A DNA stretch of 64,000 bases. Source: an uncultured Actinomycetota bacterium (GTDB lineage: Bacteria > Actinomycetota > Actinomycetes > Mycobacteriales > Jatrophihabitantaceae). Made by a program: the position numbers and the translations under genes. The notes beneath the pieces were generated by a model. That model saw nothing but the letters and a program-made list of their open reading frames with translations. It was not told the DNA's origin and searched no databases. Of the stretch, positions 21,200-54,980 are shown one piece after another (the stretch's first letter is position 1; every line of letters begins with the position of its first letter). The DNA lies in NCBI GenBank assembly GCA_963797785.1, contig CAWCQT010000001.1, positions 2,494-66,493 of the forward strand. Reading direction: 5' to 3'.

Positions 21200-21350
21200 G
21201 CACCGTCGCCCGTTCGGATCAGGGTGTGCCGACACCTGGAACCTACGTATGTCGCTGCCGTTCGAGGTAGATGTTGACGTACCGGCGCACCGCTCCGGTC
21301 TCGTCGCGCAGCAACTGAACGTCCCACCGCCGTCAATGCTCAGATACGCG
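21200..21350 (-). pseudogene. MoaD/ThiS family remnant
   Basis: YLSIDGGGT ... LRDETGAVRRYVNIYL..DIRR, with deletion and frameshift. Confidence 0.5.
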
Positions 21351-21359
21351 TCGCCGTCG

Positions 21360-21712: not shown

Positions 21713-21767
21713 CTGATCGTCATGGTTACGGCCTCTGGCGCCTCCGACGGTCAATCGTTCGCGGCCC

Positions 21768-25075: not shown

Positions 25076-25115
25076 TAGCCCACCGCCCTTGACCGGAGTC
25101 GACACGATCCGGGGG

Positions 25116-26626: not shown

Positions 26627-26637
26627 CTGGGGCCGCG

Positions 26638-29521: not shown

Positions 29522-29590
29522 GCCTTCAGCCCACCGCTACCGGACAGTCATACGTACGCACGGACGGCACAGGACTGTCCGTGCGGACCG

Positions 29591-33496: not shown

Positions 33497-33560
33497 AGGC
33501 CGATTGTCGCGCAGCGGTGGCCGCCCGGGTCATCCCGGACGGCCACGAGGGCGGCTGCTT

Positions 33561-35153: not shown

Positions 35154-35261
35154 GCGAGATCCCCTCATATGCCGCCTACGAATGGGCGCTCGTGACCAGG
35201 CGGTTCGGCTGACTAGGTGGCTACGGTAGGGCGGACGCCTGGTGCGAGTCAAGACCCATGC

Positions 35262-35375
35262 CCTAGGTCATAAGATGGTTACACGCCGGAGATGAGGCCC
35301 TATGTGTCACAACATCGGGACCAGCCGTAGGACCTATGACAGATCTGTTGCCTCCTGAAAGCCGATCCCCTAGGT
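35262..35375. promoter_or_regulatory. divergent promoter region with three CCTAGGT-type operator sites
   Basis: CCTAGGT-CATAAGA (35262-35275), CGTAGGA-CCTATGA (35326-35339), CCTAGGT (35369-35375). The minus strand has TTGACT-N18-TACCGT before the SBP gene. Confidence 0.6.
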
Positions 35376-35403
35376 TCGGTCGCAACGAGAGGACCTGATC
35401 ACC

Positions 35404-36138
35404 GTGCCGACACTCGCACTGCCGGGCCGTTACTACCGCCTGTACCCGACGATCAGCAGCCCGTTGGGCGCCGCGGTCGAGCAACTCACCCTCGGCAAGG
35501 ACGACACCGCCCTGCTGCTCGTCGATGTTTACGGCGCCGGCTTCGACGACGACCAACCCGATGGGTTGACCGGAATCTACGAGCCGGACCCGGTCATCCG
35601 CAGCATTGTGCGAGACAAGATCCGACCGGTGAAGGACGCTGCCCGCGCCGCCGGTCTGCCGACGATCTACCTGACCAACTATCTGTCCTCCGGCCTTGAT
35701 GAGGGCAATGAGTGGCGCACCATGTCTCTGCGCGTGTGCGATGTCGATGTCCTGGATGCCTGGCGACCGCCGAACGCGATCCTGGAGCACTCGAAGATCA
35801 TTGCGCCGGACGAGCAGGACGTCGTGGTGCCGAAGCAGATGTACAGCGGCTTCTTCGAGACCAATCTCGACAGCGTGCTGCGCAACCGTGGCATCCACAA
35901 CCTGGTCGTGGTCGGTTTCGACAGCCGCGTCTGTTTGGGTAGCACGGTCACCGACGCGTTGTTCCGCAACTACCGCGTTGTGGTGTTGCGAGACTGCGTA
36001 CGCACCTTTGAGTTCCCGGAGACGAAGGAGGGCGAGTGGGCCAACTTCGTCGCGATCCGCCACATCGAATGCAACGTGGGTTACACCGCGACCTCAGCCG
36101 ACTTCATCGAGGCCTGCGACGCGGCTACCAGCCAGTGA
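35404..36138 (+). CDS. cysteine hydrolase (isochorismatase family)
   Basis: LLLVDV, VPKQMYSGFFETNLDSVLR, VVGFDSRVCL (Asp-Lys-Cys triad). Confidence 0.88.
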   Translation: MPTLALPGRYYRLYPTISSPLGAAVEQLTLGKDDTALLLVDVYGAGFDDDQPDGLTGIYEPDPVIRSIVRDKIRPVKDAARAAGLPTIYLTNYLSSGLDEGNEWRTMSLRVCDVDVLDAWRPPNAILEHSKIIAPDEQDVVVPKQMYSGFFETNLDSVLRNRGIHNLVVVGFDSRVCLGSTVTDALFRNYRVVVLRDCVRTFEFPETKEGEWANFVAIRHIECNVGYTATSADFIEACDAATSQ

Positions 36139-36146
36139 GCAGACCG

Positions 36147-36917
36147 ATGCAATTGGTCGATGCACACGTTCACCTGGGCCCCCCCGAATACGCAGCGAAA
36201 CCGGCTCTCGACGAGGCGATGCGCTCGGAGCGCATCGATCAAGCGGTCCTGGTTCAGCATTTGGGCAACACCGACAACGACTACTTGGCGGCAGCACGGG
36301 CGTCAGACCCCGATCGCTTTGCGGCCATCGCGATCATCGCCAGCGTGCCCGAGGTCGAGGGTGCCCTCGACGGGGGATTTGCCGGGCTGCGGCTCGCGCC
36401 AGCGGGCCTTGCTGGTCCGGACGGCCGCGACGTGTTTGATGCACTCGCCGACAAGGGTGCTGTCGTCAGCGTCACCGGGCCATTGGCCGACGTGATCTCC
36501 GGGGACTTCCGCGCTACGGTCCGGTCTCATCCGAGCGTGCATTTTCGGATCGAGCACGTCGGCGGGTTCCGCTACGGCGAATCGACGACCGATCTGGAGG
36601 ACTTCGCTCGCCTGCTGAAGCTGGCGGCGGAGCCGAACGTCTCGCTGATGTGGTCAGGGTTCTTCCTCAACGCTGGCAGCGAATACCCCTACTTGAACGC
36701 ACACCCCTACCTCCTCGAGTCCCTTGCTGCGTTCGGCGCCTCTCGGATCATGTGGAGCGGCGACTGGAACCGTGCCGACCGCAGGGCCGATGACTACCGA
36801 CTCGCGGCTGAACTGGTCGGCCGGATGGTCGCCAGTCCCGATGAACAAGCGGCGATCCTCGCCGGCACCGCCCAGCGCGTGTTCGGCTTGCCACGCCATT
36901 GCGCCGAAGGGTTCTGA
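36147..36917 (+). CDS. amidohydrolase, sugar-acid/LigI-type lactonase-like
   Basis: VDAHVH, AVLVQ, DNDYL, GLRL, RIEHVG, RIMWSGDW. Confidence 0.75.
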   Translation: MQLVDAHVHLGPPEYAAKPALDEAMRSERIDQAVLVQHLGNTDNDYLAAARASDPDRFAAIAIIASVPEVEGALDGGFAGLRLAPAGLAGPDGRDVFDALADKGAVVSVTGPLADVISGDFRATVRSHPSVHFRIEHVGGFRYGESTTDLEDFARLLKLAAEPNVSLMWSGFFLNAGSEYPYLNAHPYLLESLAAFGASRIMWSGDWNRADRRADDYRLAAELVGRMVASPDEQAAILAGTAQRVFGLPRHCAEGF

Positions 36918-36918
36918 C

Positions 36919-37887
36919 ATGTCGGAGTTCGCGGATCTCGGGGTAGCCATCGTCGGCCCGGGAGCCATCGGCGACGTGCACGCCAGCGCACTGGTCAGCA
37001 GTGGCATCGCGGTTCGAGCGGTCGTCGGGCCGATCCCTGACGAACTGGACGAGTTCGCCACCAAGCATCGAGTGGCCCGCACTTACCCCAGCCTCGACGA
37101 GCTGCTGAGCCAAGACGACATCCACGGTGTCATCATTGCGACGCCCAGCCATCTTCACGCGCAGCAATCGATCGCAGTGCTGGAGTCAGGCAAGCACGTG
37201 TTGTCCGAGATCCCGCTGAGCCTCAACCTGGCCGACGCGCAGTCCGTCGTCGACTGTGCCGAGCGGTCCTCCAAGATCGCGATGGTGGGGCACACCCTGC
37301 GCTACTGGGAACCGCACCGCAGACTGCAGCAGTCGCTGCAGGATCTGGAGATCGTGCCGTCTCAAGTGGTGGTGCGGTCGGTGATGCTGCGCCACACGAA
37401 TGTCGGTTGGACGGGTCGACTGCGGGACTGGACCGACAGCGTCCTCTGGCATCAGGGCGGCCACGCGATGGACGCGGCGTTGTGGCATCTGCGCGATCCC
37501 GAAGGCGTGACCGTTGCCGGTGGACCGGGTCCAGTCTGGCCACCGACAGACACTCAGATGGACGTTGCCGCTGTGCTGACCACACGCGATCAACGACTGG
37601 CCCTGGTGTCGCTCTCCTTTCACAGCAGGATCGCGTTGAGCGACTTTCTGGTGATCTCCCCCGAGCACTCGCTCCTCGTCGACGAGGGCCGGCTTGTGCT
37701 GGACGGCGACGTCGTATACGACGCCGGCAGCGTCGCCGATGCACAGACGGCGGCTGTCGTCGCGCAGGATCTCGACTTCGCCCGAGCGATCACAACCGGG
37801 AGCGCCCCTGAGGTGACTGCCGCCGATGTATTTCCAGCTATGCGGGCCCTGCAGGCTCTGTCGGCCGGGGCTGTCCACCGCCGCTGA
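36919..37887 (+). CDS. Gfo/Idh/MocA oxidoreductase, LigC-like subgroup
   Basis: IATPSHLHAQQ, HVLSEIPL, RHTN...RDWTDSVLWHQGGHAMD (LigC-type RSWTDHLLWHH pattern). Confidence 0.8.
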   Translation: MSEFADLGVAIVGPGAIGDVHASALVSSGIAVRAVVGPIPDELDEFATKHRVARTYPSLDELLSQDDIHGVIIATPSHLHAQQSIAVLESGKHVLSEIPLSLNLADAQSVVDCAERSSKIAMVGHTLRYWEPHRRLQQSLQDLEIVPSQVVVRSVMLRHTNVGWTGRLRDWTDSVLWHQGGHAMDAALWHLRDPEGVTVAGGPGPVWPPTDTQMDVAAVLTTRDQRLALVSLSFHSRIALSDFLVISPEHSLLVDEGRLVLDGDVVYDAGSVADAQTAAVVAQDLDFARAITTGSAPEVTAADVFPAMRALQALSAGAVHRR

Positions 37888-40399
37888 CCAGGTGGATCAT
37901 TCCGTCGGCAGTGCCGACGATGAGGTCGGTGAAGCCGTCTGCGGTCGTATCGGCGGCAGCAAGGTATTCGATCGCCGTGTCGAACCTCAGTTCCCATTCA
38001 CTGGGCCCTTCGGAATCGGGGTCCACTGTAAGCAACTGTCCGGCCGCCGTTCCCACCACGAATCCCCGCGTACCGGTACCGGTCACGTCGACCGCGACGA
38101 TCGGCGGACGGACTGCCACCGGGCCGACGGGCACGGTGCGGATCAGCTGCCCAGTGCGCACGTCAATCAGGTCAACCACGCCCTCCCGACTCGCGCACGC
38201 CAGAACGTGCCCATCAGGCCGGTCGGCCACTGACGCATCACCGGGGAAGTACCTCCACAGCGTCGCGGTGTGCCGCCAGAGTTGATCGAACTGCAGGGTG
38301 AGGGCCTCTGTCCCGTGCACTCCACCGACGCGCAGCAGGATGTCGTCATCGCTGGCGTGCACCACTATTGGAGTTGTGTAGGCGGCTGTCCAGTCTCGCT
38401 CCGCCAGCAGATTTCCGGAATGCGCGTCACGGAGTACCAGCACACCGTGGTCGTCATACGCGACTCGCCACTTGCCTTCACGGTCGGCGGCAGCCAGAGC
38501 CAGGTTCGGATGGGGGCCACGCGCCGGGTCACGCCAGACCTGACGGCCGTCGAGTTCGTAGCTGCCGATAGCGGCGGTGTGTACGCCAGTCCGTTCGGCA
38601 ATGATGACCCGGTGTGGCTGGTCGATGAAGACCATCTGGATGGCCTGGCCAGGACAGTCGATCACGCCGAGTTCGGCCACGCCGGCGGAGCTGACTTCGA
38701 AGATCCCCACGCGTGATCGATCCACGACGCTGGCTGCGAAAAGCCTTCCCCCATAGTCACTCAGGGCCTTCACCTCACCCGGCACCGTGCAGGACGCCGC
38801 ACCGGCCCGCGCGACGGTTCCCTCGGACCCGGTCGGCGTGAACACCCAGGCAGTACCCTCGGCGATGATCGACAATGCCTCCGGACGGCAGCCCCGTGGC
38901 GACAGGTGCGCGGTCACCGACAGCTCTTCGGTGACGCGATGCAGCCGGCCGTCGCCGCTGATCAGTACGATCGCGCCGTCGATACCGGGGGCGGCACTCA
39001 GTGCGTCGAAGTCCGCGACGAGCCGGGTCTCATCGCTCACCGGGTCCCACCAGCGCGCGTGTACCCCGTCGGAAACGACGATCCCCGCGCGGCCGGTGGC
39101 ACCGTCGATCAAGGACACTAAGCTGCGCCGCGCTGCGTGGAAGGAGATGTCTGCGCGCAGCACGTCGGCGCTGCTGGTGATCGGACGCATGGGCACGCCG
39201 GCGGTGAGCACACCCGGTTCGGCAATGCGCATCGCTTGCACTGCCTCGCCACCGTCGAGCTGACGCTGCGTCGCCGGCGAGACGATGGCCACCTCGCCGA
39301 CCGACGTGCGGAGCGTTCCCCAGAAGTACTGCCCCGGCACCGCCGCGAGCAACTGGCCATCACGCGCCGATCGCAGTCTCGTGGTCCACCCGGAGCCGTC
39401 GAAATGACCGATGATCAGGATTGGGTCGTGCGAGTCTGACGCCGCGATCGACGTTGTCTGGGGCCGTAGTTCCTGGACGTCGATCGGCCAGTCCTTCTCG
39501 ACGAATTCCCCCCACGCTCGGTGCATCTGGCCTGCGGCGATGCCGGTGACCGAGTAGTACTCCTCGACCTGGCAGCTCACCAGCACCGCAAGCAGCGCAT
39601 CACTGGGGCCTACGACCTGCAGCAGGCCGTAGGGACGTGCGCACGGGTAGTCGCCGGGGTCGGGACGATAGGCGACTTCGGACAGGATCCGCCCGTCGGC
39701 GAGATCGAGCACGGCCTGGTAGAGGTGGCCGTCGGCCCGGCCGAGGACGACGCTCTCGGTCGGCACATCCGTGTGATCATCAGTGCCGTACCCCGACCCG
39801 GTTCGACTGGAGATCAGCACCTGTGGCTGGCCGCTGCCAAGTACATCGCTGAGCACCATGACCGGGCCGAAGCCGCGATCGAAGCGCCCGGCGAAGTCGT
39901 GCACCCATCTGGTGCGTACCTCGGCACTCGGACTGATCTCGAAGCAACTGATCGACTCGGAGTAACCAGGAGCGGCCAACCAGCAGAGCCGGTCGCCGTC
40001 GACCGCCACTTTCGACGAGCCAGCACCGTCCAGCGACGTTCCCTCCGGAGCCTGATGCCGCCAGAGCACGGTGCCGTCGACGAGGTCGAGCAACCGGACG
40101 TCGCGATCTCTGCTAAGCACCAGCGCGACCGGCCCACGCGCCAGCTGAGCGACATGCAACACCTTGGTCGTGACGCTGCAGTAGTCGGCGAACAGCAGCT
40201 CGCCATCCCAGCTCAGCGCCTGCAGGGACGACCCGGCAACCACGACAACGGCCGGCGAACCCGACGGCAGCCGAAACTCCAGGACCTGGCCGACAGCCGC
40301 GCCGAGTGGCCAGCTGGCTGTCACTCGGGGCGGCTGCGGCGCCATCGGCAGTTCGGCAGAGCCGCGGTTGCCCGAGCCCCGGCTCGTCGGCCAACTCAT
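37838..40399 (-). CDS. large FG-GAP/beta-propeller-like protein without signal peptide
   Basis: Intact 853-aa ORF, homologous by eye to 44206-47025 (e.g. RPYGLLQVV vs RNYGQIQLV, WGEFVE vs WDKFIE); FG-GAP-like loops partly degenerate. Confidence 0.65.
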   Translation of the reverse strand: MSWPTSRGSGNRGSAELPMAPQPPRVTASWPLGAAVGQVLEFRLPSGSPAVVVVAGSSLQALSWDGELLFADYCSVTTKVLHVAQLARGPVALVLSRDRDVRLLDLVDGTVLWRHQAPEGTSLDGAGSSKVAVDGDRLCWLAAPGYSESISCFEISPSAEVRTRWVHDFAGRFDRGFGPVMVLSDVLGSGQPQVLISSRTGSGYGTDDHTDVPTESVVLGRADGHLYQAVLDLADGRILSEVAYRPDPGDYPCARPYGLLQVVGPSDALLAVLVSCQVEEYYSVTGIAAGQMHRAWGEFVEKDWPIDVQELRPQTTSIAASDSHDPILIIGHFDGSGWTTRLRSARDGQLLAAVPGQYFWGTLRTSVGEVAIVSPATQRQLDGGEAVQAMRIAEPGVLTAGVPMRPITSSADVLRADISFHAARRSLVSLIDGATGRAGIVVSDGVHARWWDPVSDETRLVADFDALSAAPGIDGAIVLISGDGRLHRVTEELSVTAHLSPRGCRPEALSIIAEGTAWVFTPTGSEGTVARAGAASCTVPGEVKALSDYGGRLFAASVVDRSRVGIFEVSSAGVAELGVIDCPGQAIQMVFIDQPHRVIIAERTGVHTAAIGSYELDGRQVWRDPARGPHPNLALAAADREGKWRVAYDDHGVLVLRDAHSGNLLAERDWTAAYTTPIVVHASDDDILLRVGGVHGTEALTLQFDQLWRHTATLWRYFPGDASVADRPDGHVLACASREGVVDLIDVRTGQLIRTVPVGPVAVRPPIVAVDVTGTGTRGFVVGTAAGQLLTVDPDSEGPSEWELRFDTAIEYLAAADTTADGFTDLIVGTADGMIHLVSGGGQPRPTEPAGPA

Positions 40400-40422
40400 G
40401 GTCGGAACGCTACGCTAGAACA

Positions 40423-40432
40423 GACCTAGGTC
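40423..40432. promoter_or_regulatory. operator palindrome GACCTAGGTC
   Basis: Lies in the short gap between the GntR stop and the start of the 853-aa gene. Confidence 0.6.
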
Positions 40433-40445
40433 GGAAGGGCTAGCG

Positions 40446-41225
40446 TCATTCGCCAGCGCTATCGCCGGCGCCCGTCGCCGCCTGCAGCAGGTGCTTCCGG
40501 GCTCGGGCGACGATTTCGGCCGAGTACTGCACGGCCTTCTCTCCCTCACCACTGGCGATCGCCTCCACCAAGGCCGAGTGGGCAGCGTCGTTGTCGGAGT
40601 GACCGACGCCGGCCGATTCGGTGATCTCTGCTCCGCGCCGGCGCTCCTCCGCGAGCGTATCGGCCAGCGCGGAAAGCATGCCATGGATGAATCGGTTGCC
40701 CGATGCGGTGGCGATCAATTCGTGCAACTCGAGGTCGGCCGGCACCCGTTTGCCGACGTCATTGGCGGAGTCGGCGATCGCCTGGACCGCGCGCCGCATC
40801 GCCGCGACTTGGGGAGGTGTTGCGCGCTCTGCGGACAGCCGCGCCGCGTGACTCTCCAATAGAGCGCGGAAGTCCATCAGCTCTTCAATCGCCGATGCAT
40901 CCGCGTCGAGCACGAACCTCATGTAGTTCTCGATGGCAACCGGCTTGAAGTCGCGCACTACCGCGCGCTTTCCCTGCCGGGTGGTGATGATGCCTTCACT
41001 GTTCAATGTGCGAAGTGCATCGCGCACGACGCGCTGACTGACCTTGAACCGGTCGGCCAGCTCCGCCTCGGCAGGAAGTTCATCCCCAGCGTGCAACTCC
41101 CCTGCGGAAATCTGCTCCCGGATGCTGCCGGCGATCTGCACGCCGAACGGAACGCGCTGGCTGGTATCCGACACCTCTGTCACCTCACTGACCGGCGAAT
41201 CGCTCGTATTGCGAATTACGGCCAC
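40446..41225 (-). CDS. GntR/FadR family transcriptional regulator
   Basis: GDELPAEAELADRFKVSQRVVRDALRTL wHTH; FCD domain ELMDFRALLE, DLELHELIATASGN, HSALVEAI. Confidence 0.95.
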   Translation of the reverse strand: MAVIRNTSDSPVSEVTEVSDTSQRVPFGVQIAGSIREQISAGELHAGDELPAEAELADRFKVSQRVVRDALRTLNSEGIITTRQGKRAVVRDFKPVAIENYMRFVLDADASAIEELMDFRALLESHAARLSAERATPPQVAAMRRAVQAIADSANDVGKRVPADLELHELIATASGNRFIHGMLSALADTLAEERRRGAEITESAGVGHSDNDAAHSALVEAIASGEGEKAVQYSAEIVARARKHLLQAATGAGDSAGE

Positions 41226-41321
41226 ATTCTGACCGCTGTCCTGGGCTTGTCGGTCCCACGGACACCCGATCCTCTGCTGATGTGCGAGCTGTGATCATAG
41301 CGAGGCTGGGACCTGTACTCT

Positions 41322-41342
41322 CCTATGTCCTAGGTTCTAGGA
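41322..41342. promoter_or_regulatory. triple 7-bp repeat CCTATGT-CCTAGGT-TCTAGGA (operator)
   Basis: Between the divergent GntR and dehydratase genes. Confidence 0.65.
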
Positions 41343-41360
41343 TGCATGCATGGAGACGCG

Positions 41361-42536
41361 ATGAAGATAGCCCGCATCCGGCGCTGGCCCGTGGACTACG
41401 GCATCTACAACGCTATCTACGTGCAGATCGAGACCGACGACGGCGCCGTGGGCGAGGCCGAGGTCGCGATGCGGCGCCGAACCCGGTCGGTGCTGGCCCT
41501 GGTGGACGAGTTCGCCGACAATCTGGTCGGGATGGACGCCACGCGGATCGAGCAGATCCAGGAGCGGCTTTACCGTGACGCATTCCTCGGCGGCACGCTG
41601 CTCACGATCGCGATCAGCGCGATCGACCAGGCCCTCTGGGACCTCAACGCCCGCGCCCTGGACGTACCGGTGCATCGGCTGTTGGGCGGCGCCTTTCGGG
41701 ACGAGGTGTTGCTCTATACCCACGCCGCGGCCAGCGGCTCGCCGGAGGCGCTGGCCGAGCGCATCCGGGACCGGATTGACCGTGGCTTCCGGGGCATCAA
41801 GACCACTCTGCCGGCCTTCTACGAGAAGGTGACGAGCGTCCGACACCAGGACCCGCCGGTCGTTCCCGTCCACCACACCGAAACCGAGATTCTCCCGCCC
41901 GGCATCTTCTCCTACATCGCTACATTCTTCGAAGCGGCTCGGGAGGCGGCCGGCCCTGACGTGCATTTGATGCTGGACTGTCATGGACGGCTGAACGTTG
42001 CGAACTCGATCAGGCTCTGCGAAGCCCTTGCGCCGTACAACTTGACCTTCATCGAAGAACCCGTCTCCTACGAGCGACCCGACTGGCTCAGTGAGGTATC
42101 GCGTCGGTCGAGCACACCGATCGCCGCCGGCGAACGGTGGGGCAATCACTACGCCAGCGCGCCATACCTAGAGACGCACTCAGTAGCGGTCGCGCAACCG
42201 GACGTCGGGATCTGCGGCGGCATCACCACCGCCCGGCGCATTGCCAACATGGCCGAAGCGCACGCAATTTCCATCGCGTTCCACAACCCGTTCGGCCCGC
42301 TACAGAGCGCAGCAACCTGGCACCTTGCCGCCACGTTGCCGAACTTCATGATCAGCGAATCCATGCTGACGCCCGAGCAGGCGCCCTTCTGGGAACGCTA
42401 TGTCATCGACCCCCCTGTGGTGACCGATGGCGCGTGGCGGCCCACTAACGCGCCGGGCCTCGGCCCGAGACTGAACATCGACGAACTCGAACGATCCGAG
42501 CCACGGTTCGCTCTGGACATGGGGGGAACACGATGA
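41361..42536 (+). CDS. enolase-superfamily acid-sugar dehydratase (galactonate dehydratase-like)
   Basis: AISAIDQALWD, MLDCHGR, FIEEP, AAGERW, QPD, FHNP (MR-subgroup His). Confidence 0.85.
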   Translation: MKIARIRRWPVDYGIYNAIYVQIETDDGAVGEAEVAMRRRTRSVLALVDEFADNLVGMDATRIEQIQERLYRDAFLGGTLLTIAISAIDQALWDLNARALDVPVHRLLGGAFRDEVLLYTHAAASGSPEALAERIRDRIDRGFRGIKTTLPAFYEKVTSVRHQDPPVVPVHHTETEILPPGIFSYIATFFEAAREAAGPDVHLMLDCHGRLNVANSIRLCEALAPYNLTFIEEPVSYERPDWLSEVSRRSSTPIAAGERWGNHYASAPYLETHSVAVAQPDVGICGGITTARRIANMAEAHAISIAFHNPFGPLQSAATWHLAATLPNFMISESMLTPEQAPFWERYVIDPPVVTDGAWRPTNAPGLGPRLNIDELERSEPRFALDMGGTR

Positions 42537-44191: not shown

Positions 44192-44205
44192 CGCCGTGAA
44201 CCGGG

Positions 44206-47025: not shown

Positions 47026-47040
47026 CGGGGGGCTCCTAAA

Positions 47041-47055
47041 GACCTAGGTCATACT
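47041..47055. promoter_or_regulatory. operator GACCTAGGTCATACT
   Basis: Its reverse complement is identical to 54964-54978. Overlaps a TAGTAT -10-like box upstream of the Tat protein gene. Confidence 0.7.
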
Positions 47056-47171
47056 ATCGCTGCCACGGCACCGCACTTCACCGGAGTTGTCAAGATCGCG
47101 AGGGGGGTTGGCTGCTGAGTAGGACAAGAATGCGGTCGCTCGGCGCACTGCGGGATCCCGCACGCGACTTC

Positions 47172-48026
47172 TTATCCCGCTCGCGTTGTGGCGTAGGCAA
47201 CCTGGTCACGGCACCGGCAACAGTCCGTGTTCGAGCAGATGCCTGCGCCCGCGTCCTGGCCGAAAGCCGCCGTGGCCAGACTGAGCATTTCGGCGGCCTT
47301 GAAAACGCGCCAGCGTGACGGGCCGACCAGCGTGTCTCGCTGGATTTCAGCCAGGGCACCCGCCAAACGCACAAAGCCCCTCGAGCAACCCCCGTGGCGC
47401 ACCTCGATTGTGCGCCCGTCCGGGCCGTACGCCCATCGCACCAGCAGTCGCAGACCGGCCCGCTGTTCAGCTAGATGCAGGATCGTGGCCGAGCTGAGGT
47501 CAGTGCCGGCAAGGACCACCCCGCCGCCATAACGTGCCAGTCTCCACAGGGGCGCGAAGACCTCCTCGGGACTTTGCGCGGCAACGAGTTCCGCGGCTTC
47601 CGGCCCGATCGCGGTGAACGACGAAAGCGGATGGTTGCCCCGCCTTGCACCGTCGCGCGCTAAGACGGCCACGGGGATCGCTCCCATTTCCGGATCGATA
47701 TCCGTGCAGGACACCTGGAAGGGAACGCCCGCCGACCGGTCAACCCGAGCCGGGATCGACCCGTCGCCTTCGCAGTTGAACGGCAACGGCCGATGCCCCG
47801 CCGGCGCGGGCGCGGCGAAGACACTGGCGCTGAAGGTGGGCACCAGCAACGTCACGCCGGCTGCCAGGAACCCGTCAACGATGCCGTCGGCGCCCCCCGA
47901 GACCCATCCGAACGACCGCAGGGACGCATGCAGGCAGACAGGCAATCCGCTCAGCCCAAGGGCGTCGACCGCTCTGCGAATCTCCTCTGCCCCGATCACT
48001 GGACTCCTCGGTGCCTGGCCTGACAT
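47172..48026 (-). CDS. AAC(3)/YokD family (aminoglycoside N3-acetyltransferase fold) protein
   Basis: VCLHASLRSFGWVSGG, TLLVPTFS, MGAIP, NHPLSSF, TILHLAE. Confidence 0.82.
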   Translation of the reverse strand: MSGQAPRSPVIGAEEIRRAVDALGLSGLPVCLHASLRSFGWVSGGADGIVDGFLAAGVTLLVPTFSASVFAAPAPAGHRPLPFNCEGDGSIPARVDRSAGVPFQVSCTDIDPEMGAIPVAVLARDGARRGNHPLSSFTAIGPEAAELVAAQSPEEVFAPLWRLARYGGGVVLAGTDLSSATILHLAEQRAGLRLLVRWAYGPDGRTIEVRHGGCSRGFVRLAGALAEIQRDTLVGPSRWRVFKAAEMLSLATAAFGQDAGAGICSNTDCCRCRDQVAYATTRAG

Positions 48027-48045
48027 AGTCTGGAGAAAGATCGTA

Positions 48046-48059
48046 CCTAGGACTTAGGA
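48046..48059. promoter_or_regulatory. tandem 7-bp repeat CCTAGGA-CTTAGGA (operator)
   Basis: In the 37-bp gap between the divergent AAC(3)-like and DMFase-like genes. Confidence 0.65.
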
Positions 48060-48063
48060 CATC

Positions 48064-49653
48064 ATGTTGCTGGGATACGTCAGCGACGAGAACTACGTCG
48101 CTATCGCCGGAGCGCTCATCGAGGCCGCCGATGCGAACGCCGACCGCGCCCCGATAACCGCTGTCTCCAGCGCCAGTGGACGCATCGACTTAGACCTGGC
48201 ACCCGGCGAATACACCGTCTTCCTCGCGGCGGCCGGTTTCGGCGCCAAGCACGTCGAGGTCTCCGTCGGCGCCGGCCCGGTGCAGTTCCGGCTGCTCTCA
48301 GCACGCCCTTACGGATACGTCTGGCCGAAGTACGCGGCCGCGGGCGACGTCGGCGACCTTTGCATCTCAAGCCCCGATCCCTACCGGCTCTCGTTGTGGC
48401 GTTACGGCCGCGATCGGGAGCTGGTGACAGAACTGGGATTCGGCGAACACGAGGTGGGCGCCACTGCCGCATTGCTCCCCGATGGAGATGTGACCCGCAC
48501 CGGTGTGGAGTGGCTGTCCTACGGCTTTCCCGGCCAGCCGATCACCGCGCCCGACCGTAGCGGCCTCTACTACGTTCACCTGAACAGCGTGTCCGGCGCC
48601 ACGACGTGCTTCCCGTGGATCGTGTCCCCAGCTCGACCGACAAGCCGCATCGCCGTTCTTATGTCCGATCTGACCTGGAACTCGTACAACGCCTTCGGTG
48701 GTCGCAGCAATTACCTGTTTCCTGCCGGCCTGCCGCCAACTCCGCCGGTTAATCGTCGACAGGACCTGGCCCGCTATGTGGTGCCGGAGGCAGATGACTG
48801 GGAGGCCGACACGTACCCGCCGGTTTCGTTTCGGCGCCCCGATCCGGACAACGCCATTCCCTTCGACGAGCAGGTGGACGGACCGATCACGACTCGCGCG
48901 GGTGCGCACCTGGCGGCGACGGACTGGCGTCTGCTGAGCTGGTTGGAGCGCAACGGCTGGGAGTACGACGTATACGCCGAAAGCCAGCTGCACCAAGGCC
49001 GCGTCCCGCTGGATGACTATCAGCTCTTAGTACTCGGCGCACACCCCGAGTACTGGACGTGGCCGATGTTCCAGACCGTTCGCGACTGGGTGTTCGACCG
49101 CGCCGGTCACCTGATGTACCTCGGCGGCAACGGCCTCAATTGCGAGGTCGAGTTGCTCGACGACGACGCGCTATTGGTGCACAACGGCGACGTGCGCAAG
49201 CTCGGCCCGCACACCAGTCAGGACTGGTCCCGCTTCGGGGCGCGGCGAGTACCCGAGGCAAGTCTGCTCGGCGTGGGATACGACCCTCGTGGCCTGCTCA
49301 CCGCGGCACCCTACGAAGTGATCGACCCTGACCATTGGGCCTTCGCCGGCACGGCAGTGTCTGCCGGAACGATTTTCGGGGCGAGTTCGCAGAACGCCCG
49401 CATCCGTGGCGGCGCTTCAGGACATGAGACCGACAAGATCACGCCCAATTCCCCACCTGGCACCCACCTGCTTGCTCGAGGGACCAACCCGACTGGCGGG
49501 GGCGCCGAGATCGCATACTTCGCGACTGCGTCGGGCGGGAAAGTGTTCTCCGTCGGCTCGGTGGCCTACATCAGCTCCTTGCTGGTCGACCCAGTCGTCG
49601 ACGGCCTCACCGCGAACGTCGTCCGCCGATTCCTCCGGCCGTCTGTGACATGA
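48064..49653 (+). CDS. N,N-dimethylformamidase beta-subunit family protein
   Basis: LTWNSYNAFGG, VSFRRP, WLERNG, LGAHPEYWT, LMYLGGNG, GHETDK, VFSVGS; small N-terminal beta-sandwich-like domain. Confidence 0.82.
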   Translation: MLLGYVSDENYVAIAGALIEAADANADRAPITAVSSASGRIDLDLAPGEYTVFLAAAGFGAKHVEVSVGAGPVQFRLLSARPYGYVWPKYAAAGDVGDLCISSPDPYRLSLWRYGRDRELVTELGFGEHEVGATAALLPDGDVTRTGVEWLSYGFPGQPITAPDRSGLYYVHLNSVSGATTCFPWIVSPARPTSRIAVLMSDLTWNSYNAFGGRSNYLFPAGLPPTPPVNRRQDLARYVVPEADDWEADTYPPVSFRRPDPDNAIPFDEQVDGPITTRAGAHLAATDWRLLSWLERNGWEYDVYAESQLHQGRVPLDDYQLLVLGAHPEYWTWPMFQTVRDWVFDRAGHLMYLGGNGLNCEVELLDDDALLVHNGDVRKLGPHTSQDWSRFGARRVPEASLLGVGYDPRGLLTAAPYEVIDPDHWAFAGTAVSAGTIFGASSQNARIRGGASGHETDKITPNSPPGTHLLARGTNPTGGGAEIAYFATASGGKVFSVGSVAYISSLLVDPVVDGLTANVVRRFLRPSVT

Positions 49654-51344
49654 CGCGGTCACCAGGCGCGCATCCGCGCCTGTATTTCGACGGTGCCGAA
49701 CTGCAGAGGCTGCGTGCCGGGCACGGCACCGGACACCATTCGCTCATCTGGAAGAACATCGCAATCGACGCCGCACGATATGCGGCCATCGAGCCGGCCA
49801 CCGACTGGATCGCACCGCTGACCGATGACCCGAACTACGAGAATCTCTACGATCGGTTCTGGGCCATGATGTCCGACGCGGCGATCGTCGAGCAGCTCGC
49901 GTTCGCCGCCGCGTACGGCGGCGAGAACTCGATGATCACAGCGGCGACGACTCACCTCCTCGCCGCCTCCCACCGATGGCAGCAGGAGCAGAGCCTGCGA
50001 CCGGACTACGGCACGGCGTACGCCACCACCCGCTTGTTGAAGGCAATCGCGATCGGCTACGACCTGCTGGCCGGTGAGCTCGATGACAACACACGACTGG
50101 TCGTGCGGGAAATGCTGGTCGGATGCACGACCCGATTGGCCGACGAATGGTTCAACCGTCCGGACGTGCGTGGGCCGGTAGGCGTCGAACCGGGCTTGCA
50201 TTCCCCGCACCACTCATCGGTCGAATGGTCCGCCTTCGGGATCGTCGGCCTAAGCCTGTTGGGCGAGGTCGACGCCGCCGCCGATTGGACGGCCGCCACC
50301 ACCCAACATTTCATCGACCACTTGCTGCCTGCTGCCTTGGCGGCCGATGGTTCTCACCCCGAAGGAAACGCATTCTGGGCTTCGACCGTAGTGAGCCAGT
50401 TGCAATATCTCGATCCGCTGCGGCGCTGCACCGGTAAGGACCTCCTTGGGCCTGCGACTCATTCGATGAGCACGGCGATCGCGCAAGCCTCATTCCGTCC
50501 GGATCGAGAAGTGACCGGCGCCGGCGAGCCGATCTACGGCGACAGCACCGCCGTGTCCGCGCTGCTGCTGTGCATGGCGCGAGAGCTGCAGAATGACGCC
50601 TTGCAGAGACTCGCGATGACCGATCCGAGCACTGGCCGGATGGAGACCTGGCCGGCCCGGACACCCCGACGCGGCGAGCAGATGCACATCGCTCCCGGGG
50701 GGTACGCCTATGCCTGGCTGGACGCCGACCTGCCCCCCGGCGACTATCCGTCCGTCAGATCCTGGCATTTTCCAATCGCGAACGAGTCATTCCTTCGCTC
50801 CGGCTGGACATCGGATGACGCGCTGATCGCTGTCCGCGACGGCAAGATCAGCATCTACTTCGGTGCCCGACTAGTGTTCGAGGACCTCACCCCCCGGCGC
50901 GTGGTTGATCTCGAACTATCACGGCACGCGGGTACCGGCATCTACACCCTCGACCCACCGGACCTTCTCGTCCATGTGGACCGCATCGTCGACACCGACT
51001 GTGTCACGTCGCTGAGCTGCTGCGGCCCGTCCGGCGAGACCGTTGCCACCGTCCGCTTCGATCGAGCCGAGCACCGCATCGTCATCGATCGAACTGACGG
51101 CTACTTGCGATCGTGGGTGTTCGACCCGGCAGGAGAGGCCGAACTCACCGTCGTCGCGGGTTCGGTCCAGAGCACCTCACCATCGCATCATGGCATCGAC
51201 TTCAGGGCCGGCTACGGATTGCTGGACGTTGTCGAGACCGATCCTCGGTCGTACCCGACCATGACCGCCCGGCCGACTGCGGGCCACCTCACCATCGCCA
51301 TTTCCCGGCTCAACACCCAGCCCGGCGACCATGAGCCGAGATAG
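49650..51344 (+). CDS. DUF4962/heparinase II-III-like polysaccharide lyase fold protein
   Basis: HPRLYFD...L..LR start, AIAIGYDLL, DGSHPEG..FW, FLRSGW. Confidence 0.6.
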   Translation: MTRSPGAHPRLYFDGAELQRLRAGHGTGHHSLIWKNIAIDAARYAAIEPATDWIAPLTDDPNYENLYDRFWAMMSDAAIVEQLAFAAAYGGENSMITAATTHLLAASHRWQQEQSLRPDYGTAYATTRLLKAIAIGYDLLAGELDDNTRLVVREMLVGCTTRLADEWFNRPDVRGPVGVEPGLHSPHHSSVEWSAFGIVGLSLLGEVDAAADWTAATTQHFIDHLLPAALAADGSHPEGNAFWASTVVSQLQYLDPLRRCTGKDLLGPATHSMSTAIAQASFRPDREVTGAGEPIYGDSTAVSALLLCMARELQNDALQRLAMTDPSTGRMETWPARTPRRGEQMHIAPGGYAYAWLDADLPPGDYPSVRSWHFPIANESFLRSGWTSDDALIAVRDGKISIYFGARLVFEDLTPRRVVDLELSRHAGTGIYTLDPPDLLVHVDRIVDTDCVTSLSCCGPSGETVATVRFDRAEHRIVIDRTDGYLRSWVFDPAGEAELTVVAGSVQSTSPSHHGIDFRAGYGLLDVVETDPRSYPTMTARPTAGHLTIAISRLNTQPGDHEPR

Positions 51345-51690
51345 TTCTGCGGCGGACATCCTCGCGATCGTGCAGGCATACATCGCTTCCCATCACGACC
51401 GCGATCTCACGCTCACTGAAGCAGCCCGAGCGGTCCCGGTGAGCCCCTACTACCTCGCCCATCTCTTCCAACGCGACCTCGGGACGACGTTTCTGAAGCA
51501 CCTGACCCGCGTCCGACTGGAGGCGGCGTGCAGGATGCTTGCCAGCAGCAATTGCCCGGTGTCCGTGGTATCGGCACGCGTGGGCTACCGCTCGCCGAAA
51601 CGGTTCCGGATCCAGTTCAGACGAGCCTTCGACCTCAGTCCGACGCAGTACCGATCTGAAATTGCGCGTCGCCTCTCCAGGGTGCCTTGA
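51331..51690 (+). CDS. stand-alone AraC-type DNA-binding domain protein
   Basis: 119 aa; LTLTEAARAVPVSPYYLAHLF, RVRLEAACRML, VSARVGY, FRIQFRR..DLSPTQYR. Confidence 0.85.
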   Translation: MSRDSSAADILAIVQAYIASHHDRDLTLTEAARAVPVSPYYLAHLFQRDLGTTFLKHLTRVRLEAACRMLASSNCPVSVVSARVGYRSPKRFRIQFRRAFDLSPTQYRSEIARRLSRVP

Positions 51691-51704
51691 CATAGGTCAT
51701 AGGT
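51687..51704 (+). promoter_or_regulatory. TTGACA -35 box overlapped by CATAGGT-CATAGGT operator
   Basis: Perfect tandem 7-mer directly upstream of the DapA-family gene. Confidence 0.65.
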
Positions 51705-51721
51705 TGCGCTGGGATCAGTCC

Positions 51722-52651
51722 ATGACCCAGTTCTCCGAGTGCTCCGGAGTGTTTCCGGCAGCACTGACCATGTTCGACGCTAACGGCGCGCTCGACGAAG
51801 CGGCGACCCGAACTCACCTTGCCTACCTGGCGGATTCCGGCGCGCACGGATTGGTCGTGGCTGGGACAAGCGGCGAGTTCATCACGATGACGCCGACCGA
51901 ACGATCCCGGCTCGTGGATATCGCCCTGGAAACGGTGGGCGATCGGATCCCAGTCATCGCAGCGACCGGTTCAGCATCCACGCGCCAGACGATCGAGCTG
52001 AGTTCGGCCGCGGCGTCCGCTGGAGCGACGGCGGCATTGGTGATCCTGCCCTACTACATGCGGCCGACTCGCGAGGAAGTGCTCGGCCACCTGCGGACAG
52101 TGGCAGCGGCGAGCTCCATTCCAATCATGCTCTACAACAACCCAACCAACAGCGGCACAGACGCCGTCACGGCCCGGGATATCGGCGCGCTTTACGCAGC
52201 GGGTGTGCTGCAGGGAGTGAAGAGCACCTTCCCGACCGTGCACGAGGTCGTCGAGGCGATCGACGAGACCGGCCCGGACTTCCGCGCCTTCTATGGCGGG
52301 TTCACTGCTCCACTGTCCGGACTCGCGGAAGGTGCGCACGGCTGGATCAGCGGCGTTCTCAACGTCGCGCTGGAACCTGCACTTCACCTGTGGGATGCAA
52401 TTTGCAAGAGCGACCTGGACGCGGCCCGCTCGTGGGCGAAGGTGATTCGCGGCTACCGGTACCTCTACTCGCGGCAGCCACTCGGAGCGGTGAACGACAT
52501 GGCGCTCTACCGCCAGATCCTTCGACTGCGCGGCCTGACCGCCGGCTACTGCCGTGCGCCGTTGCGCGAGCTCGATCAGGACCAGGTGCAGCGTCTCGGC
52601 ACGCTGCTCGACTCGTTGCCCACCGGCGCCGCCGAGGCGGCATCGACCTGA
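51722..52651 (+). CDS. dihydrodipicolinate synthase family protein
   Basis: GVFPAALTMFD, AGTSGEF, ILPYY, IMLYNNP, GVKST. Confidence 0.9.
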   Translation: MTQFSECSGVFPAALTMFDANGALDEAATRTHLAYLADSGAHGLVVAGTSGEFITMTPTERSRLVDIALETVGDRIPVIAATGSASTRQTIELSSAAASAGATAALVILPYYMRPTREEVLGHLRTVAAASSIPIMLYNNPTNSGTDAVTARDIGALYAAGVLQGVKSTFPTVHEVVEAIDETGPDFRAFYGGFTAPLSGLAEGAHGWISGVLNVALEPALHLWDAICKSDLDAARSWAKVIRGYRYLYSRQPLGAVNDMALYRQILRLRGLTAGYCRAPLRELDQDQVQRLGTLLDSLPTGAAEAAST

Positions 52652-52682
52652 TGCGACGGATCATCGCCGACTGTCGCGCCGA

Positions 52683-53585
52683 TCAGGGCCAGGTGACGCG
52701 GGACAGGTCGGCCAGGACCGAGATCAACGACTGCGTCCCGGACCGGTCGTGGCCCTGTGCACTCAGCGCCCGGTAGAGCTGATCAGCCAGCGCCAGCCCC
52801 GGTAAGGCCACTTGCATGCGGCGCGCTTCGGCTAAGGCGATGCCGAGATCCTTACAGAAGTGCTCGACGTAGAAGCCTGCGGTGTAGTCGCCGGCGATCA
52901 TCCGTGGCGCAAGGTTGGTCAGTGCGGCGGAGGCGGCCGCTCCTGATCCGACCGAACGCAGCACGACCGTCGGATCCAATCCCGCTCGGTAGGCGTATAG
53001 CAGGCCTTCACACACGCCGACCATCGTGTTCGCGATAAGGATCTGGTTCGCCATCTTGGTGTGCTGACCTGCCCCGGGGCCACCCTGATGCACGACGGTC
53101 GGGCCAAGCACCTCAAGCAGCGGCGTGATCGCCGCAACTACTCCGGTGTCGCCACCCACCATCATCGACAGGTTCGCCGTTCGTGCGCCGACCTCGCCGC
53201 CGGACACAGGAGCATCAACCGATTCCACTCCATGCGGCTTCGCGGTGGCATGAATCTCACGCGCCAAACTTGGCTCACTGGTCGTCATGTCGACCAACAC
53301 CGTGCCCGGCGAAGAACCGGCCAGGGCCCCGTCCGCACCGAGAATCACGGCGCGCACATCCGATGGCATCGACACGATCGTCACCACCACATCGCTGGCC
53401 ATCGCCACCTCGGCAGGCGAGGCGGCCAATGTCGCCCCCGCATCAAGCAGGTTGGCAACCGACGCCGACCGGCGTGCGTACACGGTTACCGGATGGCCGG
53501 CCGCGAGGACGTGCCCGCACATCGGCGCACCCATGACCCCTGTGCCGATCCAGCCGATCCGATGCGGGGGCGGCGATGCGCTCAT
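52683..53585 (-). CDS. NAD(P)-dependent 3-hydroxyisobutyrate/2-hydroxy-3-oxopropionate reductase family protein
   Basis: IGWIGTGVMGAPM, VDMTTS, DAPVSGGEVGA, GAGQHTKMANQI, KDLGIAL. Confidence 0.92.
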   Translation of the reverse strand: MSASPPPHRIGWIGTGVMGAPMCGHVLAAGHPVTVYARRSASVANLLDAGATLAASPAEVAMASDVVVTIVSMPSDVRAVILGADGALAGSSPGTVLVDMTTSEPSLAREIHATAKPHGVESVDAPVSGGEVGARTANLSMMVGGDTGVVAAITPLLEVLGPTVVHQGGPGAGQHTKMANQILIANTMVGVCEGLLYAYRAGLDPTVVLRSVGSGAAASAALTNLAPRMIAGDYTAGFYVEHFCKDLGIALAEARRMQVALPGLALADQLYRALSAQGHDRSGTQSLISVLADLSRVTWP

Positions 53586-53851
53586 CCCTGCACGATCGCG
53601 CGCGTTCGATGCCATTCTTGCGGGGTGGCCGAGTCGTCCACCCGGACGGACACGTTCTCGGCAGCGACAGCGACAACGGTCCCGTAGCGAAGACCGTCAA
53701 GGCTAACTCGATCCCCGACATGGTGGGACGAGACGTGCGCGGCCAAGCGTTTTCCCGACCTGGGCAGCGCAGCCGCAACGAGTGCTGCGCCGGTAATGAC
53801 TCCGGATGCCTGGAGAAAGGCGCGCCGGCTCGGCAACACGTTGGCAGTCAT
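53582..53851 (-). CDS. small protein with Tat-like signal and a short beta-barrel (SH3/KOW-like) domain
   Basis: SRRAFLQ followed by a hydrophobic stretch, then VGDRVSLDGLRYGTVVAV..VSVRVD. Stop overlaps the start of the next gene. Confidence 0.55.
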   Translation of the reverse strand: MTANVLPSRRAFLQASGVITGAALVAAALPRSGKRLAAHVSSHHVGDRVSLDGLRYGTVVAVAAENVSVRVDDSATPQEWHRTRAIVQG

Positions 53852-53886
53852 TGTGTGTGTCTCGTCTCTGGAACGGGTGGCGGCCA

Positions 53887-54846
53887 TCAGGTTGCCGACC
53901 AGCCGGTGGGCCGATACACCCCGGAGGTCACCCAATTGCCGCGTACCGACCCGGTGAAATAGTTCGCATGGACTACGCAGTTGACTGCGCTGCCCGAGTT
54001 GTCCACCGAGTAGCCAGCCACCGGGCTGTTGTAGTTGGCGACGGCGCCGAATCGAAACGACGCCTCGTGGACATCACTCAGATTGAGGTAGCGACAGTTC
54101 TCGATGTCGATCGTGACGTTCGTTGACTGCAGCCCGCCATCGGTGCCCCCCACCTGAATGCCGCCGCTGACCGGACCACTGCCACCGGCCTCGTAACACC
54201 CCCCGCCGTACCAAGAGAAGCCCGAGACGCCGAACAGAACCACGGAGTAGCCCGTCGCGCCGAAGATGTGACAGCCACGCATCTTGTTCGTCCGCGCGCC
54301 GTTGGGGTCGCCGGTCTTTGCCCGTCCGTCGATCCACACCGTTGTCTCGTGTGTCGCAGACCCTCGGGTCGTCACCCACAGGTCCTCGAGCGTGATCGCG
54401 CTGACCGCATAAGTCGACGTGGAGACGATGGAGATCATCGACCCGCCGCTCGTGCCCGCCTCGCTCTCTACAGCGCAACCACGGAGGATCGATCCGTTCG
54501 AGCCCGCCGTGAACGCCATGAACCCAGCAGCCGATCCGCCAGCCTCGTTGTAATTGCGAACCAAAACCGTCTGATTGAGCCCATCACCGTCGATCAACAC
54601 GGCGGTGTTGATCTGATTGGGACGCGTGTTGAACTTGTACACGCCGGTTGGGAAGTAGATCCGCCGGTGACCGCCGGTGCTGGCAGCAGCCAGAGCGGCA
54701 TTGAACGCAGCGGTGCAACTGGTGACTCCGGTGGGATCTCCGCCGTAGTCAATGATCGACGGTATCTCGTTCAGTTTCGCGCCGACGTTGGTCGTCACGG
54801 CTCCGGTGCCGCTGGCGGTGTACGTGATCGTGCTGGCATCCGTCAT
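53887..54846 (-). CDS. right-handed beta-helix protein (pectate_lyase_3/tailspike-like N-terminus)
   Basis: GTGAVTTNVGAKLNEIPSIIDYGGDPTG...AFNAAL...IYFPTGVY...IDGDG, then beta-helix-like repeats. Confidence 0.75.
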   Translation of the reverse strand: MTDASTITYTASGTGAVTTNVGAKLNEIPSIIDYGGDPTGVTSCTAAFNAALAAASTGGHRRIYFPTGVYKFNTRPNQINTAVLIDGDGLNQTVLVRNYNEAGGSAAGFMAFTAGSNGSILRGCAVESEAGTSGGSMISIVSTSTYAVSAITLEDLWVTTRGSATHETTVWIDGRAKTGDPNGARTNKMRGCHIFGATGYSVVLFGVSGFSWYGGGCYEAGGSGPVSGGIQVGGTDGGLQSTNVTIDIENCRYLNLSDVHEASFRFGAVANYNSPVAGYSVDNSGSAVNCVVHANYFTGSVRGNWVTSGVYRPTGWSAT

Positions 54847-54951
54847 GAGTTCTCCAGGGTCGGAATTCACGCGCGGGTAGACGCGTGGCGATGTGCCGCC
54901 CGCAGAACTCCGTCCCCTTCGGTCTGCCCGGCGATGTAACGCGCTGCGCAG

Positions 54952-54980
54952 AGACTACAAATGAGTATGACCTAGGTCAA
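54952..54980 (-). promoter_or_regulatory. housekeeping-sigma promoter TTGACC-N17-TAGTCT overlapped by palindrome TGACCTAGGTCA
   Basis: Minus strand reads TTGACC TAGGTCATACTCATTTG TAGTCT; palindrome at 54968-54979. Confidence 0.7.

Follow-up and report, generated by a model that had tools for sequence, protein, structure and literature searches.

NanR and BioR are exceptions to the operator that is canonical for the FadR subfamily of GntR transcription factors. The canonical operator is a single A/T-rich palindrome, TKGT-N2-3-ACMA (PMC4494728). In E. coli, three NanR dimers bind (GGTATA)3 cooperatively, and this FCD-type repressor is released by its effector, the substrate of the pathway, and controls a local regulon for sugar-acid catabolism (PMC8012715). 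Here we describe a motif built from the unit ACCTAGGT, which recurs between 35 and 55 kb in a stretch of 64,000 nucleotides (the window, C1:2494-66493) from the genome of an uncultured actinobacterium (4.34 Mb, ~72% G + C, 4 contigs). We consider it very probable that the motif is the operator of the GntR/FCD regulator encoded in the same island (40446-41225, minus strand), because the same word stands at the same promoters, beside the same regulator, in distant actinobacteria.

With FadR, DgoR, LldR, PdhR, GlcC and UxuR/ExuR, the island regulator shares the fold and the family. These proteins are local regulators of carboxylate or sugar-acid genes, often divergent from them and autoregulated, and they bind their effector in the FCD domain. 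The island operator is unlike their canonical type: AC precedes GT (ACCTAGGT), a central TA is invariant, and the units form arrays with a 7-bp step. The TKGT-N2-3-ACMA form, typical for the subfamily and not obligatory, is not present in the island motif. As a candidate we tried a FadR-like GGT-N-ACC arrangement reaching across neighboring units, which fitted neither the motif profile nor the alignment.

NanR is closer. Both proteins combine a winged helix-turn-helix (wHTH) with an FCD domain, and both operators consist of closely spaced short repeats rather than a single TKGT-N3-ACMA palindrome. The repeats differ, being palindromic CnTAnG units at a 7-bp step in the island and asymmetric GGTATA repeats with short spacers for NanR. 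NanR has an N-terminal extension of ~32 residues that mediates cooperativity, whereas the island regulator lacks a conserved extension. The regulated genes are unrelated to nan, a generic DHDPS-family gene being all there is of a nanA/nanT-type context. The NanR subfamily (NF003011) was the best NCBIfam match of the regulator, but with 106 bits, compared with a cut-off of 260, the protein is not a NanR orthologue.

Two further GntR-family motifs are non-canonical: the direct repeats TGGTATT of NagQ, and TCTTATGTCTTATATAAGACATAAGA of SdhR, a “palindrome with additional symmetry” (Suvorova et al. 2015, PMC4494728). The SdhR palindrome also holds direct repeats at a 7-base step (TCTTATG TCTTATA), the same double symmetry as in the island motif (PMC4494728). 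NagQ and SdhR belong to the HutC subfamily and not to FadR/FCD, their sequences differ from the island motif, and their regulated genes have no known relation to those of the island. We group the island operator with NanR, NagQ and SdhR as repeat-type exceptions, which it resembles. It extends the short list of FadR/HutC regulators without the canonical GT-N-AC palindrome. A literature search of limited coverage (ACCTAGGT with GntR) gave no description of the motif. A local, autoregulated FCD-type regulon is a kind already known; the strict 7-bp array of palindromic units is what is unusual.

The motif and its distribution

The repeated unit is a palindromic hexamer, C-n-T-A-n-G, plus a one-base A/T linker, with ACCTAGGT as the optimum and GACCTAGGTC as the extended form. 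For scoring, we trained a palindromic 8-mer position weight matrix (PWM) on the intergenic DNA of 10 syntenic loci (the window and nine relatives, see below), and defined a tandem as two units 7 bp apart. The PWM consensus was [A/T]-C-[C/a/t]-T-A-[G/t/a]-G-[T/A], the C, the TA and the G being ~98% conserved. The consensus of the repeat, cnTatGACCTAGGTCatAng, has an invariant C, TA and G and a period of 7 bp. When core-like 8-mers were paired in eight loci, 14 pairs were at distance 7, and any other distance up to 40 bp had at most two.

Arrays have one strong unit at 40423, 47041 and 54964, two units at 48045 and 51690, and three at 41321; in tandem sites, 2-4 units are good. The divergent region between the substrate-binding protein (SBP) and isochorismatase genes has four dispersed units. 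The symmetrised profile around the “single” sites, c-n-T-a-t-G-A-C-C-T-A-G-G-T-C-a-t-A-n-g, revealed a strong central unit accompanied by weak units at -7 and +7. Since the unit itself is palindromic, an array can be read in two ways, as a longer palindrome and as a direct repeat of 7 bp. The first-pass annotation had described both symmetries, and both descriptions are right.

The nine intergenic sites listed in that annotation are all present. CCTAGGT lies at 35262, 35369, 40424/5, 41329, 47042/3, 48045 and 54970/1; the window holds 10 matches against 2.28 expected, a number reached in none of 100 shuffles. The 15-mer AGTATGACCTAGGTC occurs exactly, as had been claimed, at 47041-47055 (minus strand) and 54964-54978 (plus strand), and with up to three mismatches it has six matches (0.55 expected). 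The 12-mer TGACCTAGGTCA occurs once, at 54968-54979. Intergenic PWM matches of at least 9 bits lie at 35261, 35298, 35332, 35368, 40424, 41321, 41328, 47042, 48045, 48052, 51690, 51697 and 54970, and three weak matches fall in coding DNA of the window (28760, 30005 and 48657).

Gene starts were corrected from orthologue alignments, after which all the sites are intergenic. Of the eight gaps in which a promoter is required, seven contain a site. The claim of a motif at nearly every promoter between 35 and 55 kb stands. No motif was found in the intra-operon gaps 33497-33560 and 29522-29590, nor in the convergent gap 52652-52682. The arrays end 5-29 nt before the corrected starts of the isochorismatase, 853-aa, MR_MLE, 939-aa, AAC(3)-like, DMFase-like and DHDPS genes, and lie ~100 nt upstream of the SBP, regulator and pectate-lyase-like genes.

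Genome-wide, the motif is concentrated in the island. All three copies of GACCTAGGTC, 10 of the 33 copies of CCTAGGT and all three matches to the degenerate tandem 15-mer WCHTADGWCHTADGW are found there. The 35-55 kb stretch, 0.47% of the genome, has 11 of the 66 PWM matches of at least 11.5 bits and five of the six tandem matches of at least 17 bits; the sixth tandem is in an unrelated stretch with 48% G + C. Two perfect copies of ACCTAGGT elsewhere (C2:1443745 and C4:2007738) are isolated units without flanking periodicity and with unrelated neighbors, and we treated them as chance. A cluster of weak matches at C2:393-403 kb lies in a 48%-GC stretch with a retrotransposon-like open reading frame (ORF), and was for its composition rejected as false positives.

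Outside this genome, the motif follows the regulator. Among 401 genomes sampled across the class, the regulator was found only here and in five genomes of one other genus. Three genomes of that genus (7.2-7.7 Mb) had exactly two matches each to WCHTADGWCHTADGW, one ~155 bp and one ~17 kb from the regulator gene (both within 17.5 kb), and the reversed control pattern had no match in any genome tested. GACCTAGGTC was present in these genomes in one or two copies each, one of them 3.5 kb from the regulator gene. The motif is clearly not equally frequent in unrelated intergenic DNA.

No regulator orthologue was found in 40 close relatives, and therefore we used metagenome contigs, Dactylosporangium (two paralogues) and Jiangella for footprinting. 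Their orthologues are 43-79% identical to the regulator, and nine syntenic loci were obtained, 10 with the window. One of the searches for related loci gave a single useful locus (L002) and four distant paralogues (25-36% identity) without the motif. The core synteny, seen in all nine loci, consists of MR_MLE and Amidohydro_3 genes divergent from the regulator gene, plus a gene for a propeller protein of ~840 aa. Where the DNA reaches far enough, GFO, Amidohydro_2 and isochorismatase genes follow, and usually also 3-hydroxyisobutyrate-dehydrogenase-like (3HIBDH), DHDPS and peptide-type ATP-binding cassette (ABC) transporter genes (none seen in L015, which is the second locus from Dactylosporangium).

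In an unbiased 7-mer count over the 10 loci, ACCTAGG ranked highest: the 10.3 kb of intergenic DNA held 34 copies of it, and the 184 kb of coding DNA held 3. It was followed by CTAGGTC, TAGGTCA and GAACCTA. In every locus, the orthologous promoters had PWM matches. Accessory genes specific to single loci were preceded by them too, for example a serine-dehydratase operon in L015, another MR_MLE/Amidohydro_2 pair (the second) in L013, and in L016 a 519-aa and 931-aa FG-GAP pair and a beta-lactamase-fold gene. Intra-operon gaps across the loci had no match, and very few gaps before unrelated neighbors carried one.

The divergent gap between the regulator and MR_MLE genes had a site in 10/10 loci. 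In an alignment of this gap the mean column identity was 42%, and no columns were invariant except AC.TA.GAC.TA.G. Between the regulator and ~840-aa genes, GACCTAGG(T/G)C was present in L002, L007, L010, L013, L014 and L015, and gaps beside the SBP gene carried sites in L007, L013, L017, L018 and L019. The link drawn by the first-pass annotation between the motif and the FadR-type regulator at 40446-41225 is supported by these shared promoters. The motif and the regulator define a high-confidence computational regulon for a conserved, uncharacterised catabolic cluster.

In Jiangella muralis (L016, 14055-14083), two strong units precede the FG-GAP pair exactly 21 bp apart, with weak units between them. 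This distance equals three 7-bp steps, or two helical turns, and hints that pairs on the same face at 21 bp matter. Dactylosporangium sp. CA-233914 encodes two paralogues of the regulator ~57 kb apart (L002 and L015, ~7.90 and 7.96 Mb), both 68% identical to that of the window and each with its own MR_MLE/Amidohydro_3/propeller core and motif. L002, with its 20 kb, has at least seven motif sites. The two regulons share one operator, and cross-talk seems likely.

The regulator and its predicted mode of action

The regulator gene (40446-41225, minus strand) has a public call of 242 aa (start 41174), the longest ORF being 259 aa. Both Pfam domains were well above the cut-offs, with 66.7 bits versus 27 for the GntR wHTH (PF00392, residues 30-90) and 75.7 bits versus 24.3 for FCD (PF07729, residues 115-239). 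The relatives in the PDB were all FCD proteins: 6az6, 7c7e, 6on4 (NanR) and 9jpj (PdhR). Judged by these matches, the regulator is a bona fide member of the FadR subfamily.

In 17 orthologues, down to 36-42% identity, the recognition helix and the wing (…VSQRVVRDALRTL…TRQGKRAVV…) are invariant. Such invariance of the predicted DNA-reading parts is in line with the invariant core of the operator. D164, H168, H209 and H216, candidates for the Asp/His metal-binding residues of the FCD pocket, are also invariant in the alignment of the 17 sequences. Before the conserved R-[VI]-P-[FL]-G, the N-terminal stretch is poorly conserved and its length ranges between 0 and ~45 residues. No transcription-factor gene other than that of the GntR/FCD protein is shared by all syntenic loci, and on the metagenome contigs L007, L010, L013, L014, L017 and L018 it is the sole one.

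A three-unit array at 41321-41342, TCCTATG TCCTAGG TTCTAGGA (12.0 + 12.7 bits), sits in the divergent promoter region of the regulator and MR_MLE genes. Read from 41322 it is CCTATGT CCTAGGT TCTAGGA, the three tandem units that had been reported there. We predict this array to be the autoregulatory site. A predicted TATGAT-type -10 of the regulator gene is conserved 22 nt beyond the array in most loci.

We expect the regulator to be an autoregulated local repressor, with less confidence than we have in the operator. Without inducer, its dimers would occupy the CnTAnG arrays and repress ~28 genes, including their own; most of the arrays cover what we predict to be the -35, the spacer, the -10 or the start. 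The regulator would be released when an intermediate of the pathway, a carboxylate or sugar acid, binds the (metal) pocket of the FCD domain. By analogy with other FCD regulators, such a compound is the most likely effector (NanR/Neu5Ac, PMC8012715). The pathway would comprise a dehydrogenase, lactonase-like amidohydrolases, a galactonate/mannonate-dehydratase-like enolase, DHDPS/KdgD-like enzymes and several amidases or deacylases, together with the large FG-GAP and pectate-lyase-like proteins. As far as its annotations go, this enzyme set is consistent with import of an amide-bearing sugar or sugar acid by the peptide-type ABC transporter and its breakdown along an oxidative, non-phosphorylative route.

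The first-pass annotation had put the regulon at about 30 genes. Our count of ~28 genes in 9-10 transcription units agrees, and is reasonable provided that the 13-gene minus-strand run from 35168 to 20954 is a single transcript. In each genome the operator marks accessory pathway genes (FG-GAP, DMFase-like, AAC(3)-like, pectate-lyase-like, beta-lactamase-fold), and offers a handle on the substrate. The regulator/operator pair could be used as a reporter or biosensor for inducer screening.

How the dimers would fit on the arrays is a more speculative matter. Several dimers may assemble cooperatively on the 7-bp CnTAnG array and wrap or spiral around the promoter, the number of units (1-4) setting the strength of repression at each promoter, a model to which we give limited credence. 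Such an assembly would be NanR-like but tighter and symmetric, without NanR's N-terminal extension, a mode undescribed for the FadR subfamily. A 7-bp step corresponds to ~240 degrees, and three steps to two helical turns. The arrays are a good test case for the packing of FCD dimers on repeats.

Several points weigh against the proposed operator and regulon. The operator is outside the canonical consensus of the FadR subfamily, and because of this misfit with TKGT-N2-3-ACMA, family membership does not predict it. The 7-bp step places neighboring 8-mers on different faces of the helix with overlapping footprints, which puts joint occupancy in question. The gap upstream of the 3HIBDH-like gene (53616-53886), where a promoter is required, has no site, and the single transcript of the 13-gene run is an assumption. 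A strict E. coli-type sigma-70 scan of 35.2-55.1 kb, which included terminators, found no promoter in any motif-bearing gap; its one match was inside a gene, fewer than the shuffles gave. The first-pass annotation had several sites overlapping -35/-10 boxes. Promoter-like hexamers can indeed be recognized by eye at these sites, but since the strict scan found no promoters, the overlap is a by-eye reading, and matches of the TANNNT type are inflated because the motif itself contains TA.

Activation, or a dual role, at some promoters such as that of the SBP gene is improbable in our estimate. It would keep the operator and change only its effect. The site at 35261-35275 is ~7 nt upstream of a TTGACT-N18-TACCGT on the minus strand, of which the TTGACT is -35-like, and some members of the subfamily do activate, as FadR on fabA and GlcC. 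Most promoters, however, have repressor geometry, with units over the spacer, the -10 or the start, 17-29 nt before the start codons, and the autoregulatory site abuts the -35 position belonging to the conserved TATGAT-type -10. In another reading, a different protein binds the motif. The ~840-aa protein accompanies the motif no less strictly than the GntR gene, but is beta-propeller-like and has no match to a DNA-binding domain. A 119-aa AraC-HTH ORF (51331-51690) ends exactly at the 51690 site, yet has no counterpart in the nine other loci. The third candidate is a factor encoded elsewhere in the genome. The motif, however, tracks the GntR gene from genus to genus while the genomes are otherwise unrelated, and the palindromic unit suits a dimeric wHTH protein. 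We regard all three candidate binders, taken together, as very improbable.

Slightly less credible still is a motif without any regulatory role, produced by low-GC, CTAG-rich composition, by restriction-modification (CCTAGG is an AvrII-type site) or by a small dispersed repeat. The density of CTAG in the window is ~3 times the median of the genome, and AT-rich foreign DNA elsewhere in the genome does yield spurious PWM matches. Against this, the coding DNA of the island loci is nearly free of the word (3 copies versus 34 intergenic), composition leaves the strict 7-bp phasing unexplained, and the flanks are not conserved, so that the motif is not a mobile repeat. Its position relative to orthologous genes is kept across genera, with the C, TA and G fixed while the degenerate positions vary. 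The coding/intergenic counts, the co-localisation in the other genus and the footprint have already largely refuted this explanation.

Genes and predicted operator sites of the island

The G + C content of the block at ~20.9-58 kb is 62-67%, compared with 72% in the flank at 12-20 kb and in the genome. The step at ~20.9 kb is sharp and coincides with the end of the 13-gene operon. Regulator orthologues were absent from the 40 close relatives searched (24 genus-mates and 16 others). Based on the low G + C and the missing orthologues, we conclude that the block at ~20.9-55 kb (~34 kb), carrying genes for sugar-acid/amide breakdown, is a horizontally acquired island. The cluster is patchy in soil actinobacteria, with 1/25 sampled genomes of the genus and 2/175 sampled genera of the class. 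CTAG is very rare genome-wide (873 copies), with 31 copies in the 64 kb of the window versus a median of 3 per 20 kb, and composition contributes a little to the enrichment of the motif.

A paralogous first enzyme module at 13-20.9 kb (72% G + C) gave no motif match, and is for this reason placed outside the regulon. This copy has native composition and no operator, while the second copy is in the low-GC block; the two copies therefore differ in history and in regulators.

The putative 13-gene operon (20954-35168, minus strand) is read from the promoter region at 35.2-35.4 kb, all on one strand with overlapping genes or short gaps. By Pfam, it encodes an ABC transporter (SBP_bac_5, two permeases and two oligopeptide-type ATPases), enzymes (MR_MLE, Amidohydro_2, DHDPS, two further Amidohydro_2 and GFO/IDH/MocA), and at its end a creatininase-transglutaminase-discoidin fusion and a 393-aa protein. 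The SBP start was corrected to ~35168 or 35153. The divergent gap to the isochorismatase operon is occupied by four operator units, at 35261-35275, 35298-35305, 35325-35339 and 35368-35375 (PWM 10.2, 9.5, 12.0 and 10.2 bits). The letters at 35326 are CGTAGGA CCTATGA. A promoter-like TAGGTT lies at 35371-35376; this hexamer and those given below were recognized by eye. The operon on the other side (35404-37887, plus strand) has isochorismatase-like, Amidohydro_2 and GFO/IDH/MocA genes (Pfam), syntenic in all related loci.

The gene for the 853-aa beta-propeller protein (37838-40399, minus strand) always adjoins the regulator gene. It has a single perfect operator, GACCTAGGTC at 40423-40432, 25 nt upstream of its start (40399). 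On the other side of the regulator, the MR_MLE (sugar-acid dehydratase-like) and Amidohydro_3 operon (41361-44191, plus strand; Pfam) is divergent from it. The MR_MLE protein at 41361 had 252 bits for the NCBIfam galactonate dehydratase, below the cut-off of 311. The pair is syntenic in 9/9 related loci, the second gene in L018 being without a Pfam match on record. The third unit of the 41321 array contains a -10-like TAGGAT (41337-41342), 19 nt before the corrected MR_MLE start.

A 939-aa FG-GAP beta-propeller protein (Pfam) is encoded at 44206-47025 on the minus strand. Its operator, GACCTAGGTCATACT at 47041-47055, is an exact copy of the 15-mer and is 17 nt upstream of the start (47025), abutted on the minus strand by a -10-like TAGTAT.

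The next gene (47172-48026, minus strand) is AAC(3)-like, with 106 bits for Pfam Antibiotic_NAT. We did not call it a resistance gene, because NCBIfam AAC_3 gave 74.7 bits with a cut-off of 270; the protein is probably a metabolic N-acetyltransferase and not an aminoglycoside resistance enzyme. Divergent from it are genes for a DMFase-beta-like protein (529 aa), a 564-aa protein of unknown function and the 119-aa ORF (48064-51690, plus strand; Pfam). A two-unit operator, ACCTAGGACTTAGGA at 48045-48059 (CCTAGGA CTTAGGA; PWM 12.7 + 11.1 bits), fills the 37 bp that separate the AAC(3)-like gene from the DMFase-beta-like gene, with TACGAT beside it. It accounts for one of the three matches to WCHTADGWCHTADGW in the genome.

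The 119-aa ORF (51331-51690, plus strand) has an HTH_18 domain only. It is probably a truncated regulator; the end of the 564-aa gene overlaps with it, and its stop is exactly at the 51690 operator.

A DHDPS-family gene, aldolase or KdgD-like (Pfam, NCBIfam), is located at 51722-52651 on the plus strand, its start (51722) set by alignment. The two-unit operator ACATAGGTCATAGGT at 51690-51704 (CATAGGT CATAGGT; PWM 13.4 + 12.0 bits) is 18 nt upstream of it. The site overlaps a TTGACA (51687-51692), followed after 17 nt by TGGGAT, with the ATG 6 nt further on, an arrangement compatible with a leaderless transcript.

The last unit (52683-54870, minus strand) has a pectate-lyase-like gene and then the 3HIBDH-like gene (Pfam), which may be one transcript from the promoter at 54.96 kb. 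The operator AGTATGACCTAGGTCA at 54964-54979, upstream of the pectate-lyase-like gene (start 54870), contains the only perfect 12-bp palindrome. It overlaps TTGACC (54980-54975)-N17-TAGTCT (54957-54952) on the minus strand. In the sole promoter-type gap without an operator we found an 88-aa ORF (53585-53851, minus strand) with a clear twin-arginine signal (MTANVLPSRRAFLQASGVITGAALVAAALP…), which overlaps, in a different frame, the start of the 3HIBDH-like gene. It may encode a small exported protein or be what is left of a larger gene.

Outside the window, the stretch at C2 ~393,000-403,500 has ~48% G + C within the 72% G + C genome. It encodes an ORF of 945 aa (C2:393793-396630, minus strand), whose start resembles the Pol of Ty3/gypsy-type retrotransposons (…IEFTIDLIPGTSPIAHPPYKM…). 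Contamination with eukaryotic DNA, a chimeric assembly or a striking case of transfer could account for the stretch.

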